NCBI GenBank assembly: GCA_964357615.1
Contig: CAYHMC010000004.1
Location: forward strand, 25,722 to 89,721
Source of the DNA: an uncultured Candidatus Saccharibacteria bacterium
GTDB taxonomy: Bacteria > Patescibacteriota > Minisyncoccia > UBA6257 > JACOXY01
DNA length: 64,000 nucleotides
Direction of reading: 5' to 3'
The notes below the pieces were generated by a model. That model did not search any database. It saw only the letters and a program-made list of their open reading frames with translations, and was not told the origin of the DNA. Both the position numbers and the translations under genes were made by a program. Shown piece by piece: positions 27,137 to 64,000 of the stretch. The first letter of the stretch is position 1, and every line of letters begins with the position of its first letter.

Positions 27137-28294
27137 TTGAAAGACAGGTCACAATACGAGAGGGGTCGAGAGATGAGTAAATCTAGACTTTGGGCATTTT
27201 TCATCGCGTTTTCATTGATATTGGGGTCATATAACCCCGCTTGGGCAACAGAGCCTGTGGTACTCGACCTGCCCCCTTGTGATGAGGTGTGGTTGAACGG
27301 TTCTGGCGATCATAACAACAACTGTAGTGAATACGGCGGTCTCGGCGGATGCAACGGCATCGTTGGAGACGTCGCTTTGCTTGGTGATAAATACCAATCA
27401 ATTCCAAGCGGTCAAATCTTCTGCGGCGATCATCGCATTCAGGGGTGTGACAAGGTCACCAAGGTGAACTGCCACACATTACACCAGTTTCTTTGCACCA
27501 CTGTCCCCATATTCCTAATTATCGACGGAGTAAACACCAAGGTTGCTCCTGGTGTTGGAATTCCTACTGAGTGGCGTGTTGCTGACTCGTGCTCGGAAGC
27601 GCAACCCGAACCTGTTGAATTTTGCGAAGTACGTGGCTGCGACTGGAACGTCATGGACTCTAATCCTTACGATGAAAATGGTTGCCCCCCCGCAATCGCA
27701 CACCACTACCCGCTCTGCGACTGCCGACCACACTTCTGTGGTGATGGCACGCAGGATCAAGGCGAAGAGTGCGACGACGGCAACAACACCGACGGCGACG
27801 GCTGTAGCTCCACCTGCACAGAAGAGTGCGGGAACGGAACTAAGGACGCTGGCGAAGAATGCGACGACGGAAACCTGACCAACGACGACGGCTGTAACTC
27901 AAGCTGTGAGCTCGAGTGTGGCCCGATCTTGAACGACCCAGGTATCGTCAAGCGCAAAAACAACAGTCTCGATTTGTTCAAGGTTCACGGACGATTGCCT
28001 ATCGTGGTAAACGCCACCTTATTTCGAATTCGTCTCATGAACAACACTGACACTGCCTTCGACCAGACCTACAACAACGTGTTGCAGGGTCATTGGTGGA
28101 AGGATTACGCGCCTCCCCTGTACAGGTTCAAAATGGAATCCGGGCCGAAAGCGCGCTTTTCATTATCCAGCATGCAAAGTGAAATCAATAATTTCTCACC
28201 AGATATGTGTGTGAGAATCGATGTTGATGGCCAGTGCTTCAAGCACTGCCCATACTGGTTCCCAATCTTTAATGGCTGGAGATATAGCGAGTAA
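27137..28294 (+). CDS. secreted Cys-rich repeat protein (Myxococcus-type CGxGxxxxGEECDDGN repeats), G+C-rich gene
   Basis: The likely start is MSKSRLWAFF at 27173, after the RBS GAGAGGGG, followed by a signal peptide. Tandem 'CGDGTQDQGEECDDGNNTDGDGCSSTC / CGNGTKDAGEECDDGNLTNDDGCNSSC' units. Strong GC-codon bias, unlike its neighbours. Confidence 0.65.
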   Translation: MKDRSQYERGREMSKSRLWAFFIAFSLILGSYNPAWATEPVVLDLPPCDEVWLNGSGDHNNNCSEYGGLGGCNGIVGDVALLGDKYQSIPSGQIFCGDHRIQGCDKVTKVNCHTLHQFLCTTVPIFLIIDGVNTKVAPGVGIPTEWRVADSCSEAQPEPVEFCEVRGCDWNVMDSNPYDENGCPPAIAHHYPLCDCRPHFCGDGTQDQGEECDDGNNTDGDGCSSTCTEECGNGTKDAGEECDDGNLTNDDGCNSSCELECGPILNDPGIVKRKNNSLDLFKVHGRLPIVVNATLFRIRLMNNTDTAFDQTYNNVLQGHWWKDYAPPLYRFKMESGPKARFSLSSMQSEINNFSPDMCVRIDVDGQCFKHCPYWFPIFNGWRYSE

Positions 28295-30352: not shown

Positions 30353-30386
30353 AAACACCCCCGCAATGCGGGGGTGTTTTATTTTA
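30353..30386. terminator. bidirectional terminator
   Basis: AAACACCCCCGC aat GCGGGGGTGTTT followed by TATTTTAT. Confidence 0.75.
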
Positions 30387-31946
30387 TGGAAGTTGTGGAA
30401 TTGGAAGATTTAATTCCGGACAAACAATCATATTTATTTTCCATTTTGTAGTCTTGTATACATACTGAGTAGGAGTCTTTTCTGTAGGAAGTCCGTGTGG
30501 AACCCAAGGAAGAAGAACTTCTTGCCAGTACTTAACCTGGAAATTATCTACTGCTTTTTCGGTAAGTTTTCCGTAAAAACCAGTTACTGGCAAACCTGCG
30601 TTCATGTGGCTGTTCAAGAAACTCTGAAGCTTTATTACCTGTTCACGATCATTCTTTTTGCTTATTCGCAAATAATCTCGTAGATACAATGTGCAAGTTG
30701 AAGCACCCAATACTTCTCCAGGTGTGCTTGTTGCTGCAACTGAACCTGAACCACCGCCACCTGAATAATTAACATATCCTTCTGCTGGTTGAGCTGAGCC
30801 CACTCCAGGATTGATACTACCTCCGGTGCTACCCCCTCCTCCACCGCCACCTCCTCCACCTCCGCCACTTGTTGTAACTGGAGTTGGTATTGGGGTTGGG
30901 GTTGGTTCATTCACGGGAGTAGGACTTGGTTCGCCAGCTGGCGAAGGGGTTGGTGTTGCTACAGGACCTGAACCTCCTCCTCCATTTGATGTTGGAGTAG
31001 GTGTTGGCAATGATGTAGGACTTGGTGTTGGTGTTGGCGATGGTGATACTAATGAAACATTATATGAAATGCAGTAAACATCACTTGGAATAGTGGTGAA
31101 TTTCAAAAACTCTAGGTTATCACCATTTACAGCATCGTTATAACAACGCATTGCTCCAAATTTTGAAAGGTTATTATTTTGAATTCCGCTCAACCAAACC
31201 AATTTTTGACTAAATAAATTATTTTGAAGTGTGCTATTTAAATCGCTAGTTGATATATTTATCTCACCATTCGTATTTGTTGGACCAACAATTTGAGTGT
31301 TATTTAACTGTTCTTCGTCGGTTGATATCTTAAAGCTAGTTCCTGCTAATCTTGTGCAAGATTCCGGAATTTCTGAAACTGCAACTGGTTTTTGTGGAAA
31401 TGGATTTAAAAAGTGAGGAATTGAAGCGAGATAATTAATAAAATTTGTAAAATTTCCATCGGTATCATCAAGCTTATCTGCATCTGCATTTCCAGAAATG
31501 ACATTATAAGATGGACAAACAACCTGAACGATATGGAGGTTTGCTGATGGTGTTGGAGAGACTGATGGAGTTGGTGAAGCTGATGGTGTTGGAGAGACTG
31601 ATGGAGTTTGTGAAGCTAATGGTGTTGGAGTTGCTGTAAGGGTAACTGCCGGTGTTGTGACTGGAGTAGATTCCGGAGTTGGTGTTGGTGAAGGTAGAGG
31701 GGTTGGTAATGGTACCGGTGTTGGAGTTACGCATGAGCCATTGCAATCATTATGATTGTTATGATTTTCATCATGATTTTCATGATCATGATTATTTTCA
31801 TGTTTATCATTATCTACAAAAGCATTAACAACTGAAATATCAGAGTTAAAAACAGCTAAAGTTGAAAATGTGCCGAAAACAACAATTAACCCAAGAGCTA
31901 ATAGTGATTTAATATTAATTGTATCTAGTCTATTTTTGTTTATCAT
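30384..31946 (-). CDS. cell-surface protein with His-rich segment, Pro/Thr/Ser linkers, poly-Gly tract and C-terminal peptidoglycan-binding (PG_binding_1-like) domain
   Basis: N-terminal [19 protein letters not shown], (SPTP)n linkers, [13 protein letters not shown], and C-terminal '[31 protein letters not shown]'. Confidence 0.55.
31543..31630. repeat. 36-nt tandem coding repeat (2.4 copies) within the surface protein gene
   Basis: GCTGATGGTGTTGGAGAGACTGATGGAGTTGGTGAA repeated. Encodes SPTPS(A/V)SPTP linker units. Confidence 0.7.
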
Positions 31947-44997: not shown

Positions 44998-45068
44998 GCC
45001 GAATTAGTTCAGTGGCAGAACACTACTTTCGTAAAGTAGAGATGTGGGTTCGATTCCCGCCTTCGGCT
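44998..45068 (+). tRNA. tRNA-Thr (anticodon CGT)
   Basis: Manual fold. Acceptor GCCGAAT/CTTCGGC with a 7:66 mismatch. D-arm GTTC-AGTGGCA-GAAC. Anticodon stem CTACT/AGTAG with loop TTCGTAA. T-arm GTGGG-TTCGATT-CCCGC. No encoded CCA. Confidence 0.75.
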
Positions 45069-45099: not shown

Positions 45100-45127
45100 T
45101 TTACGAACACTAAAATCATAGTATAAT
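45100..45127 (+). promoter_or_regulatory. sigma70-like promoter (TTTACG-16-TATAAT) driving element A / znuC
   Basis: TATAAT at 45122-45127 with TTTACG 16 nt upstream. The predicted TSS is about 45134, just before the structured element. Confidence 0.5.
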
Positions 45128-45139
45128 TATTGTACATGA

Positions 45140-45261
45140 ATCCCGTTAGAAATAGCGGGCGCGACAAAAGAATATTCGAAACAGAAAAAATTTATTAATT
45201 ATATTTAATTCATTGGTACGCACAACGCCTATTGCGTCCGCGTCCTATTTCTAACGGGATG
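45140..45261 (+). promoter_or_regulatory. conserved ~122-nt structured 5' leader element, copy A (candidate cis-regulatory RNA)
   Basis: A perfect 16-bp stem pairs ATCCCGTTAGAAATAG (45140-45155) with CTATTTCTAACGGGAT (45245-45260) and includes the A and U of the start codon. It is followed by a bulge and a 6-bp GGCGCG/CGCGUC stem. An internal hairpin ACGCA-(10 nt, CGCCU)-TGCGT is present. A second copy lies at 55922-56046. Confidence 0.6.
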
Positions 45262-45984
45262 AAAAGAATCGCTAAAGAGAAGATTTTAAAAGTTAAAAAA
45301 TTGACCGTAAAGCTTTCAAACACAATCATTATTGATGAATTAAGTTTTGAAGTTGAAAAAGGAGAGCACCTTACTATCATAGGACCAAATGGTTCGGGCA
45401 AAACTACACTCTTTAAGGCTCTAATAGGCATGGTTCCTTATCAGGGAATGATAAGCTGGTCTACGGACACTAAAATCGGTTATGTTCCACAAAAACTAGA
45501 TATCGAAAGAGATTTACCTCTTTCGCTTGGTGACTTTTTAAAAGCTGCTAGTGCTGGTTTATCAAATATAAATAACCACGAGATAAGTGAGTGTTTAAGA
45601 CTGGTTCATATAGAGGATGAATTATTAAACCAACAACTTGGAACTCTCTCTGGCGGACAATTTCAAAGAGCGCTAGTTGCTTTTGCGCTTCTTGGAAATC
45701 CAGATGTATTGCTTTTTGACGAACCTACTTCTGGCGTTGATCGACCAAGTGAAGAGCAAATATATGAAACTCTACACAGAATTCAAGACGAAAAAAATGT
45801 AACCATAATAACTATCTCACACGATTTAAGCTTAGTTCACAAACATTCCGACAAAGTCTTGTGTCTTAATAAGAGGGGTATTTGTTATGGAGCTCCAGAG
45901 GCAACATTAGACCATGACACTATTGCGAAACTTTACGGCGCTGACCACCATAAATTTTTCCATCACGAACATGATAGACACTGA
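45259..45984 (+). CDS. znuC: metal (Zn/Mn) ABC transporter ATP-binding protein
   Basis: Start set at ATG 45259, which is the end of element A. The track's 45232 is a TTG inside the element. Walker A GPNGSGKTT, signature LSGGQFQR, Walker B LLFDEPTSGVD. Confidence 0.75.
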   Translation: MKRIAKEKILKVKKLTVKLSNTIIIDELSFEVEKGEHLTIIGPNGSGKTTLFKALIGMVPYQGMISWSTDTKIGYVPQKLDIERDLPLSLGDFLKAASAGLSNINNHEISECLRLVHIEDELLNQQLGTLSGGQFQRALVAFALLGNPDVLLFDEPTSGVDRPSEEQIYETLHRIQDEKNVTIITISHDLSLVHKHSDKVLCLNKRGICYGAPEATLDHDTIAKLYGADHHKFFHHEHDRH

Positions 45985-46741
45985 AATTTATAAAATAATA
46001 TTAGCACTTCTAATGTCTATAGCTTCTGGCTTAGTTGGGTCTTTTGCGTTGATGAAAAGAATGACGCTCGCAGGAGATGCCATATCACACATTGCTTTGC
46101 CTGGGTTAGCGCTTGCTATTTTATATTCAATTAATCCAGCCTTAGGAGCGGGAATTGCGCTTTTAATCGGCGCGCTTATAATCTGGAAAGTCGAGAGTAT
46201 ATCTAAACTAAACACAGAAGCAATTGTCGGCGTTCTTCTGGCTTTAAGTTTAGCTATTGGGGAATTAATGATTAAAGATGAACACGAGCTTATGGAGCTA
46301 CTTTTTGGAAATGACAGCGGAATTATATTTAGTGACTTTATTATCGGTTCCCTAATTGCGATACTCATAATTCTATTTACTATCAAAAAGAAATATGCCC
46401 TTACGCTTAGTTTAGTTTCAAAAGAACTTGCTAAAACCACAGGCATTAATAATGATGGGCTCCAACTCTCATTTTTATTAATTTTTTCTCTAACAATTTT
46501 ATTAGGATTAAAATTCTTAGGTGTATTGCTTATGGGATCACTAATAATAATTCCGGCGGCTATAGCCAGAAACATTGCAACGAATTTAAATGGTATGTTA
46601 GTGCTCTCAAGCCTCGCATCCACTGCGTCAGTCATATTAGGAATGTTGCTGGCGGAATTATTTAGTCTTTCGCTTGGTCCATCTATAGTTTGCGTCGCTG
46701 GTCTGATATTTTTTATATCATTATTTCTTAGGAAAAAATAA
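45971..46741 (+). CDS. znuB: metal ABC transporter permease (ABC-3/ZnuB-like)
   Basis: Start MIDTEIYKIILALL at 45971, overlapping the znuC end. About 8 TM helices. Confidence 0.7.
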   Translation: MIDTEIYKIILALLMSIASGLVGSFALMKRMTLAGDAISHIALPGLALAILYSINPALGAGIALLIGALIIWKVESISKLNTEAIVGVLLALSLAIGELMIKDEHELMELLFGNDSGIIFSDFIIGSLIAILIILFTIKKKYALTLSLVSKELAKTTGINNDGLQLSFLLIFSLTILLGLKFLGVLLMGSLIIIPAAIARNIATNLNGMLVLSSLASTASVILGMLLAELFSLSLGPSIVCVAGLIFFISLFLRKK

Positions 46742-63329: not shown

Positions 63330-63725
63330 TTATTTTTCTTTAAGATTAATCGAACATGAATTTATACAATATCTTTTGCCACCCTTATCTTTTGGTCCAT
63401 CGTCAAAAACATGACCTAAGTGAGCACCACAGCGCCGACAAATAACTTCTGTTCGCGACATACCAAGACTACCATCTTCATGCAATTCAACATTTTCTAA
63501 GTTTATCGGATCGGTAAAACTTGGCCAACCAGTGCCAGAATCAAACTTAGTGTCAGATGAAAAAAGTTCCAAACCACAAGCCCTGCATTTATACATTCCG
63601 CTTTCATGGTTATTCCAATATTCCCCAGTGAATGGCTTCTCTGTCCCGCCTTCAAACATAACATTGTATTGCTCTGGGGTTAATGCTTTTTTCCATTCTT
63701 CTTTTGTTTTATTAATTTTTTCCAT
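63330..63725 (-). CDS. msrB: peptide-methionine (R)-S-oxide reductase
   Basis: 'CRACGLELF' and 'CRRCGAHLGHVFDDG' MsrB zinc/catalytic motifs. Confidence 0.85.
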   Translation of the reverse strand: MEKINKTKEEWKKALTPEQYNVMFEGGTEKPFTGEYWNNHESGMYKCRACGLELFSSDTKFDSGTGWPSFTDPINLENVELHEDGSLGMSRTEVICRRCGAHLGHVFDDGPKDKGGKRYCINSCSINLKEK

Positions 63726-64000
63726 CCAGTTAGAAGCAGATCGCGATTATGTAATGCGATTTGTGCTAATTAAATTATAATCTCGTTTATATTATATAAC
63801 ATTTTTAAATTAAGAATTTGTGCAATCGCGGATTCTAACTGGATCCATATTATTTTAAGTTATTATAAACTAAGAAACTCTAATCTTTGGAAGAATTTTA
63901 AGTAGTGATATACTATTTATATATAATATTAAATAATTCGTCGTCTGTAAAATAACAATAATAGGTATGAATAAAAAAATTTCTACTTTTTCCATAGTAA

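Follow-up and report, generated by a model that had tools for sequence, protein, structure and literature searches.

The hairpin in the leader of the znuC-like gene is very probably a copy of a short, mobile DNA hairpin whose insertion sites are precisely the start codons of genes unrelated to one another. We assign the copies found in the 64-kb window, i.e. the whole stretch of DNA that was analysed, with strong confidence to a large non-autonomous hairpin family of MITE/REPIN type that extends across Paceibacteria (Patescibacteria). In the best reading of the family, which we consider highly probable, it is a MITE/REPIN-like non-autonomous element whose insertion is specific for start codons and regenerates the ATG.

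Two of the copies in the window, A and B, each fold into a long hairpin with its foot at the ATG of the following gene. In copy A, ATCCCGTTAGAAATAG (45140–45155) is the perfect complement of 45245–45260, exactly as stated in the first-pass annotation, which had described this 16-bp stem in front of znuC; its outermost pair, A45140–U45260, turned out to consist of flanking target-duplication bases. Copy B, which had been recognized as having the same architecture, does have it, with a hairpin and a foot at the ATG, and here ATCCCGTTAGAGATAG (55922–55937) perfectly complements 56030–56045. The similarity between A and B begins and ends exactly at the stem ends. The sequence ATCCCGTTAGARATAG has four zero-mismatch matches in the 64-kb window, all of them arms of copies A and B, and an arm search with up to three mismatches gave five matches vs 0.94 expected. 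Only two copies had been noted originally; there is a third, copy C, on the minus strand in front of msrB (Table 1). Its arms, TCCAGTTAGAA and TTCTAACTGGA, carry a compensatory G-C to A-U change. Inside the outer stem, copy A has an inner stem, CGGGCGC/GCGTCCG, with a CGTC-like bulge of ∼ 4 nt on the 3′ side, and an A/T-rich interior with a small hairpin at 45218–45237.

Table 1. Coordinates of the element copies, their flanking sequences and the adjacent genes in the 64-kb window.
Feature	Position	Strand	Details
Host promoter of the znuC-like operon	45100..45127	+	TTTACG-16-TATAAT; 10/12 consensus matches
Upstream start-codon copy and left target-site duplication	45136..45140	+	ATGAA (TGAA = 45137–45140)
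Element copy A, 119 nt	45141..45259	+	Arms 45141–45155 and 45245–45259
Regenerated start codon and right duplication	45259..45263	+	A45259 = last base of the element, then TG; TGAA 45260–45263
ABC transporter ATPase (ZnuC-like), downstream of copy A	45259..45984	+	PF00005, E=4.8e-25
ABC-3 permease, next after the ZnuC-like ATPase	45914..46741		PF00950, E=3.5e-49
Element copy B, 122 nt	55923..56044	+	Right duplication TGAA 56045–56048
GT4 glycosyltransferase, downstream of copy B	56044..57228	+	PF00534, E=2.4e-31
Element copy C, 119 nt	63725..63843	-	Flanks ATGGA (63848–63844) and TGGA (63724–63721)
MsrB (SelR), downstream of copy C	63330..63725	-	PF01641, E=9.7e-53

The conserved hairpin lies between promoter and ORF and reaches the start codon, as had been described for copy A, and the TATAAT promoter reported directly upstream of it is indeed present. 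The upstream ATG of copy A follows the -10 box by 9 nt, so this start is leaderless or nearly leaderless, and inspection of the sequence upheld the statement that no Shine-Dalgarno (SD) site precedes the start codon. The downstream gene encodes, in keeping with the transporter proposed, a ZnuC-like ABC transporter ATPase, and a gene for an ABC-3 permease follows it (Table 1); a protein look-up returned no record of the ZnuC-like protein of the window. To the left of copy B, positions 55919–55922 read TTAA, a decayed duplication, so that the upstream ATG is now ATT. The start codon of the GT4 glycosyltransferase (56044–56046) takes the final A of copy B, and its orthologues in two other loci (L044 and L093) are also preceded by the element. 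Copy C is identical in two contigs from the same population (L116 and L117). The sites of the window are filled as well in same-population contigs from the Hainich groundwater well H41 and from a Logan run, and the predicted sequence of an empty copy A allele was not found in the metagenomes searched.

Scanning one genome per species with a palindromic two-arm pattern (TCCCGTTAGNNNTAG, 75–105 nt, CTANNNCTAACGGGA), we found at least 115 matching loci. Nearly all of them come from metagenome-assembled genomes (MAGs) labelled Patescibacteria/Paceibacteria, many with several copies, and the named groups include Kaiser-, Nomura-, Zambryski-, Taylor-, Yanofsky-, Campbell-, Vogel-, Niyogi-, Azam- and Jorgensenbacteria; some element-bearing MAGs carry the label Saccharibacteria and one the label Omnitrophota. 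A relaxed search of these loci and the window yielded 158 copies of 39–135 nt, with the mode at 110–125 nt and mini forms of 39–71 nt. There were no matches to the element in viral contigs. The main-class consensus reads TCCCGTTAGARATAG-CGGACGC, a variable A/T-rich interior of ∼ 70 nt, and GCGTCCG-CGTC-C-TATYTCTAACGGGA, which corresponds to an outer stem of 14–15 bp, a 4-nt bulge on the 3′ side and an inner stem of 5–7 bp; subfamily 2 is marked by CCCTAACGGG directly 3′ of the 5′ arm. In the aligned copies the interior is poorly conserved and has no conserved pocket. The element has no coding capacity, as there are stops in all frames and no conserved peptide beyond the arms. The arm sequence, on the other hand, is conserved to an extreme degree across order- and class-level lineages.

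The flanks show how the element is placed. After main-class copies had been oriented by their internal asymmetry, the layout was ATGNN, element, TGNN-ORF. Among the matches listed, the right flank of main-class copies starts with TG in 88 of 90 cases, ATG stands at -5 to -3 of the left flank in 68 of 90, and the 4-nt flanks are identical in 63 of 90. In the ORF-oriented set, also among the matches listed, 96 of 126 copies have identical 4-bp duplications, ∼ 11 more have 3- or 5-bp duplications from the same T, and 8 have no upstream start copy at all. Thus, the element integrates directly after the A of a gene's ATG and, by itself, spans T to A; because its last base is A and the duplicated TG follows, an intact ATG-ORF is rebuilt at its 3′ edge, and a second ATGNN stays at its 5′ edge. 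The duplication begins at the T of the ATG and reads TGN, TGNN or TGNNN, most commonly TGAA, with TGGA, TGAG, TGCG, TGGC and TGAT at other loci. We found no mutual information between the duplicated bases and any position of the element, near-identical elements can have different duplications (TGGA in L071 vs TGAA in L078), and the few copies off an ATG have 4-nt duplications nonetheless (TCAA, TAAG, CGAA). The duplication is therefore derived from the target and is not a part of the element.

To find filled and empty sites, we compared every ORF in the loci with the product of the gene that follows each element. In at least six ortholog sets both states occur, the empty one having a single ATGNN and conserved upstream sequence. 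For example, the filled sites of L075 and L034 read TTTTATAGGCATGAG-(117 nt)-TGAGCGC, and the empty site of L017 reads GTTTATAGGCATGAGTGAC; likewise, L069 has GCTAGGATGCCCGTATGGA-(117 nt)-TGGATAAGGAA and L028 has GTTAGGATTCTTATATGGATAAAGAG. Consecutive elements with one common TGAA form tandem arrays in L086 (three in a row, with near-identical copies), L017, L078, L097, L094 and L066, and copies within a genome resemble each other more than copies from different genomes. Duplications, filled and empty sites and tandem arrays together typify a mobile element of the MITE kind; as expected of MITEs, these elements are short and non-coding, have terminal inverted repeats and a target-derived duplication, and are dispersed in polymorphic copies.

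Analysis of the downstream sequences showed that, among the matches listed, the regenerated ATG is the exact start of an ORF of 50 codons or more in 121 of the 158 copies, on one side only. Most of the remaining copies precede rpmJ (37–38 codons) or a GTG start, are themselves upstream members of arrays or lie at contig ends, and a handful lie 2–8 nt upstream of an ATG, or elsewhere. All 106 classifiable copies among the matches listed (91/91 of the main class and 15/15 of subfamily 2) are in sense orientation to the gene (p ∼ 8e-28). Copies are never antisense and never within ORFs, so the scatter over both orientations and gene interiors that the first-pass annotation had taken as the sign of a MITE-like repeat is absent. 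Element-bearing genes are found on both DNA strands within a few kb in 5 of the 21 multi-copy loci, and in the window itself (A and B on the plus strand vs C on the minus strand); the orientation of the element thus follows the gene, not replication. Among the matches listed, the 110 downstream proteins fall into 123 Pfam families, and the genes include rpmJ (L36) and those for GluRS, class II aminoacyl-tRNA synthetases, FtsW/RodA, MurG, trigger factor and RecO. Downstream genes that are so unrelated rule out a ligand-specific riboswitch, and the presence of normally essential genes in this set means that insertion cannot abolish their expression.

The leader had originally been interpreted as a riboswitch or thermosensor for znuC. 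A gene-specific riboswitch or RNA thermometer that senses a metal, a metabolite or temperature via sequestration of the start codon would account for a hairpin reaching an AUG that lacks an SD site, for compensatory pairs and for copies that are all sense to genes. We nevertheless regard it as extremely improbable, as more than 110 unrelated genes are preceded by the element and even the window genes (ABC ATPase, GT4 glycosyltransferase and MsrB) form no coherent set, the weakly conserved interior offers no ligand-binding core, and duplications, empty sites and tandem arrays are those of a mobile element. A thermometer is further disfavoured by the stem of ∼ -40 kcal/mol with 15+5 base pairs, which is far too stable. 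There is no Rfam match either: the whole window, searched at the gathering score, and the element, searched at E up to 10, gave only tRNAs and sub-threshold miRNA-precursor hairpins. Occlusion of the start codon may still affect expression, but this would be a generic by-product or a result of co-option and not the action of a riboswitch or thermosensor.

The fold itself is robust. Minimum free energy structures close the stem in copies A (-40.2 kcal/mol) and B (-48.4 kcal/mol), with z-scores of -4.4 and -6.8, respectively, against dinucleotide shuffles, and the element hairpin contains a perfect duplex of at least 15+5 bp. Taken as terminal inverted repeats, the 15-bp arms show pairing in 99.5% of cells and include compensatory variants: pair 11 is AU in 52 copies and GC in 29, and for pair 12 the numbers are 77 AU and 5 GC. 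The compensatory change between copies A and B that had been noted is real, although it affects A45151–U45249 and not 45150/45250. The inner stem, too, has changes on both sides. Covariation beyond the two copies, proposed earlier as a check, is evident from a score that exceeds all 500 shuffles and all slid registers. Since the search pattern fixed 12 outer stem pairs, the invariance of the outer pairs is in part an effect of ascertainment; in addition, transposon termini or self-correcting palindromes would likewise have matched ends. It had been argued that G-U pairs make the fold specific to the plus strand and that the mRNA structure is under selection. An excess of G-U over A-C pairs in the inner stem does exist (21 vs ∼ 3), but sense and antisense RNAs fold with equal stability (means of -40.5 vs -39.7 kcal/mol, p=0.10, 123 copies), so that the case for selection on a structure specific to the mRNA strand is weak.

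Which start codons are used is apparent from their context: the targets are start codons without an SD site that are either leaderless or abut or overlap an upstream ORF. Among the matches listed, a TANNNT box peaks 6–7 nt before the upstream A (42/125 copies vs ∼ 4 per position), frequently with a TG extension, which is the geometry of leaderless promoters. A long same-strand ORF ends within 40 nt upstream in 55 of 116 copies, often with an ATGA or TAATG overlap. Thus, the target is the start codon in general and not the transcription start, and we rejected targeting of the RNA polymerase open complex (the TSS) alone on the same figure. SD-like 4-mers occur upstream of 3% of the copies vs 10% of element-free ORFs, by a crude count. 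Downstream, bases +4/+5 are AA in 61% of copies vs 20% of 162 element-free leaderless-like starts (p=1.5e-12), and RR in 89% vs 41% (p=5e-18). From this preference together with purifying selection, a crude count of ATGRR outside long ORFs predicts a start-codon share of ∼ 20–40%, whereas at least 88% is observed, which indicates that extra targeting or selection is at work. Guide pairing of the element with its target was rejected because the mutual information is below the null, and insertion as an antisense terminator was rejected at 13 sense vs 7 antisense cases.

The enzyme that moves the element would cut with a stagger of 3–5 nt and prefer A|TGRR, and purifying selection would then clear every insertion that fails to regenerate the ATG. 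The extreme conservation of 10–15 nt of the arms implies a conserved trans-acting enzyme, which could be a compact, sequence-specific integrase. Staggered 3–5 bp duplications probably reflect a cut-and-fill integrase of the DDE-like kind; a non-palindromic target and strict orientation are unusual for two-fold-symmetric DDE transposases, and this counts against the reading that we favour. In ∼ 0.9 Mb of loci there was no autonomous partner with TCCCGTTAGA ends (no arm pair 0.5–3 kb apart, none enclosing an ORF) and no transposase cluster with matching ends. The sole transposase there is an IS200-like Y1_Tnp (PF01797), encoded in 4 of 115 loci (L034, L017, L002 and L024).

A REP/REPIN-type element, moved as single-stranded DNA by a RAYT or IS200-like HUH tyrosine transposase whose mechanism sets both the orientation and the TGAA target, would fit strict orientation and an asymmetric tetranucleotide target better. 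It is quite unlikely, in our judgement, given the real target-derived duplications of 3–5 bp: HUH Y1 transposition (IS200/IS605) is not known to make a target duplication. The Y1_Tnp genes are flanked by hairpins unrelated to the element, such as CCAAGGTTCGACCTTGG, and element-bearing genes on both strands within a few kb are at odds with targeting of the lagging-strand template. The likeness to REPINs, which are non-autonomous, persist for long in lineages and have two highly conserved inverted ends around a spacer of conserved length and variable sequence (PMC3116915), extends to inverted ends, a variable spacer and compensatory changes. The CGTC-like bulge of the main class and the GTAG of subfamily 2, next to a local CCCGTTAG/CTAACGGG palindrome, recall the tagged REPs (PMC3733652). 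REPINs are, however, randomly placed in extragenic space (PMC3116915), whereas the start-codon family is found at start codons (at least 88%), is flanked by duplications and has, in the loci scanned, no RAYT flanked by the same repeats. It differs also from the IS200/IS605-derived PATE, with their subterminal hairpins, fixed tetranucleotide and lack of duplication, in that its hairpin is formed from the two termini and its duplications are variable and target-derived.

A possible, if tentative, addition to the reading as a start-codon-specific MITE/REPIN-like element is that it has been co-opted as a genome-wide post-transcriptional module, its hairpin being kept to tune or protect SD-less mRNAs, for example by stabilising their 5′ ends, by serving RNase III as a processing site or by coupling translation, with placement and orientation resulting from positive selection. 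The extreme conservation of the arms across order- and class-level lineages would agree with this, as would the 100% sense orientation of an element whose symmetric ends would regenerate an ATG either way, a placement at start codons beyond the prediction from sequence preference, the excess of G-U over A-C in the inner stem, and copies that persist at orthologous sites of genomes whose proteins are 73–81% identical. Such a function is hard to reconcile with fold energies that are alike for sense and antisense, with the many orthologues that lack the element and with functionally incoherent target genes, and the likeness of copies within a genome and the tandem arrays suggest selfish spread.

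How genes behind such a hairpin are expressed depends on where transcription starts. If the element contained an outward-facing promoter, transcripts would begin inside it, the 5′ arm would be absent from the mRNA and the AUG would be unblocked. Of 123 copies, 36 have a sigma-70-like site in sense, vs 13 in antisense and 17.8 in shuffled interiors, and copy A has TCGAAA-18-TATATT at 45176–45205. We consider this explanation improbable and rejected a conserved internal promoter, because these sites are limited to 29% of copies, lie at no fixed position (20 to 85 nt from the 3′ end) and are missing inside copies B and C, and host promoters are conserved directly upstream of elements. The start-codon element would instead be co-transcribed from the host promoter, giving an mRNA with a hairpin of ∼ -40 kcal/mol and its foot at the AUG, and the gene would remain expressed, as the presence of normally essential genes suggests. 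Ribosomes would load at the start that is kept upstream, either a 5′-terminal AUG or the stop of an upstream ORF, translate into the stem and unzip it, terminate in the loop or at a UAA/UGA of the 3′ arm, and re-initiate at the regenerated AUG. Alternatively, the stem could be removed by a double-strand RNase, as RNase III does with Correia elements. With low confidence, we prefer the re-initiation route, perhaps combined with removal by RNase III.

Several features of the copies bear on this choice. In favour of re-initiation, two of the three frames of the 3′ arm close with a stop that overlaps or adjoins the AUG (UAA, or UGA where the duplication is of the TGA type), and the third frame is in frame with the ORF. 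Also in its favour, the TAA of the upstream gene abuts the element in some copies without an upstream ATG (L086 and L095), point-diverged duplications show ∼ 12 differences in NN vs 1 in the upstream TG, and the targets are position-dependent, SD-less start codons. Against it, the uORF of the element has a median of 19.5 codons and ends in the loop; about half stop there, ∼ 60 nt before the AUG, and only about a quarter reach the arm. The 8 of 126 copies that lack an upstream start copy count against it as well. The identity of the left duplication, moreover, is flat by position (109, 109, 111 and 109 of 126), so that the model is weakly supported. Translation of the insert in frame was rejected, since the uORF stops inside the element and the length of element plus duplication is not constrained to multiples of 3. 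Ideas of attC-like, BHB-intron-like, self-cleaving-ribozyme and anti-SD-pairing elements were dropped on account of box order, unpaired exons, the lack of a conserved core and spacing.

A further reading, which we deem unlikely, is a start-codon-homing element whose insertion is guided by the initiation machinery and whose expression uses an initiation route not described before: ribosomes that have loaded at the 5′-terminal AUG, or have terminated at the upstream stop, would cross the closed foot of the -40 kcal/mol hairpin to the duplicated AUG by shunting, hopping or re-initiation. Initiation complexes, or a dedicated Paceibacteria-wide enzyme, would here direct insertion beyond the DNA sequence. 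If true, organisms that make little use of SD sites would have in the element a portable device for translation coupling.

Among known systems, the Correia/NEMIS elements of Neisseria are similar in being non-coding and ∼ 100–150 bp long, with terminal inverted repeats, a long hairpin, short duplications and a high copy number in each genome. The duplication made by Correia elements is TA, and they occupy varied intergenic positions in either orientation, whereas the start-codon family sits on the start codon, always in sense, duplicates TGN(1–3) and restores the ATG by means of its terminal A; a parent IS for it did not turn up in the ∼ 0.9 Mb of loci. Correia elements are co-transcribed with neighbouring genes, and RNase III cleaves their hairpin in mRNAs (PMC10969869). 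The Rickettsia palindromic elements are palindromic mobile elements that are tolerated within the boundaries of essential genes, since their insertion leaves a functional ORF (PMC10969869). They lie in frame within the coding sequence, which is then translated with an additional peptide segment, whereas the family described here has stop codons, sits before the ORF and duplicates the start codon. With leader uORFs that act by termination and re-initiation, and with the bypassing of phage T4 gene 60, there is a functional analogy only: a stable hairpin with stops at its edge lies between a start or take-off codon on its upstream side and the same codon, used for landing or starting, on its downstream side. 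The start-codon family differs from these systems in that conservation of its uORF peptide is confined to the arm-encoded xPVR(N/D)SGR.

In the searchable literature, we found no description of start-codon insertion by a MITE or of this motif, nor of an ATG rebuilt by the last base of the element itself in any bacterial transposable element. The 2024 review of prokaryotic MITEs mentions neither start codons nor the candidate phyla radiation (PMC10969869). This would be the first family of bacterial transposable elements to have the start codon itself as its niche, and the rebuilding of the ORF from its terminal base and the target duplication is what lets it persist in extremely compact genomes. 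Its insertion sites show leaderless and coupled SD-independent initiation in these organisms directly, and raise the question of how ribosomes can use an AUG at the base of a perfect 15+5 bp helix. The case also illustrates that what looks like a riboswitch leader, covariation included, can be a mobile hairpin. Many Paceibacteria genes, among them rpmJ, ftsW, murG and those for aminoacyl-tRNA synthetases, have their 5′ ends marked by the element. Gene callers can then misplace starts: in the ORF list of the window, both znuC and the GT4 glycosyltransferase gene open at a TTG inside the element.

The window holds a third copy of the mobile hairpin element, copy C, which was absent from the first-pass annotation. 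It precedes msrB (63330-63725), its target duplication is TGGA and its arms carry a compensatory change (CCAG/CTGG).

In the tandem arrays found at loci of other genomes (L-numbers in the table), two or three elements follow one another with exactly one 4-nt duplication common to neighbours (CGGGA-TGAA-TCCCG). Thus, the regenerated site is a preferred target itself. Three copies located away from start codons adjoin CTTATCCACA or CTTATCA, a DnaA-box-like motif (TTATCCACA), and are inverted relative to the start-codon copies when a TAAG-type target is taken as the reference; they may be insertions near oriC or dnaA.

The mini forms of the family (39-71 nt) consist of the terminal stem and little else, and a 258-nt variant (L092:3360-3618) has an unrelated palindrome nested within it. 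The interior motif GGTCGA(A), found in 15 of the 123 elements compared (those of L008, L014, L016, L029, L033, L034, L036, L070 and others), is in the sense strand in every case and occupies a similar place (element positions 41-53). It resembles one half of the hairpin that flanks IS200-like Y1_Tnp (PF01797) genes. Each of these genes lies between its own short hairpins, which are unrelated to the TCCCGTTAGA arms of the element: CCAAGGTTCGACCTTGG at L034 and L017, and TATGGCAGTCAGACTGCCATA at L024. The CCAAGGTCGAACCTTGG hairpin is also present in L055, L060, L063 and L076 and therefore represents a second REP-like family.

At a few loci (L087:3939, L009:4557 and L056:3113) the reading frame of the upstream gene enters the 5' arm of the element, which would replace the original C-terminal residues with element-encoded ...PVR(N/D)SGR.... 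In the window, mechanical ORF calling starts the znuC frame at TTG 45232 and that of the GT4 glycosyltransferase gene at TTG 56017, both within the 3' half of the element; automated annotation may therefore add N-terminal extensions to element-bearing genes.

The first of two tRNA genes (44998-45068) ends 72 nt upstream of the element copy before znuC, shortly before the znuC promoter. The tandem or periodic in-ORF repeats of the window bear no relation to the mobile hairpin.

Features of the window and of loci in other genomes
Feature	Location	Strand	Remark
Element copy C	63725-63843	-	window
tRNA gene	44998-45068	+	window
tRNA gene	48489-48559	-	window
In-ORF repeats, GGTGTTGG-type units	30904-31725		18-nt period; inside 520-aa ORF 30384-31946 (-)
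In-ORF 90-nt duplication	27737-27906		Cys/Asp/Gly-rich; inside ORF 27137-28294 (+)
Tandem array	L086:7454-7823		
Tandem array	L017:3574-3811		
Tandem array	L078:4117-4336		
Tandem array	L097:3894-4140		
Tandem array	L094:1843-2080		
Tandem array	L066:5184-5423		
Non-start-codon copy	L106:6143-6262		
Non-start-codon copy	L092:7207-7324		
Non-start-codon copy	L018:5763-5885		
Mini form	L083:4639-4687		
Mini form	L101:2289-2338		
Mini form	L043:3228-3266		
Mini form	L003:1501-1571		
Y1_Tnp gene	L034:1612-2355	-	
Y1_Tnp gene	L017:4394-5096	+	
Y1_Tnp genes	L002 and L024
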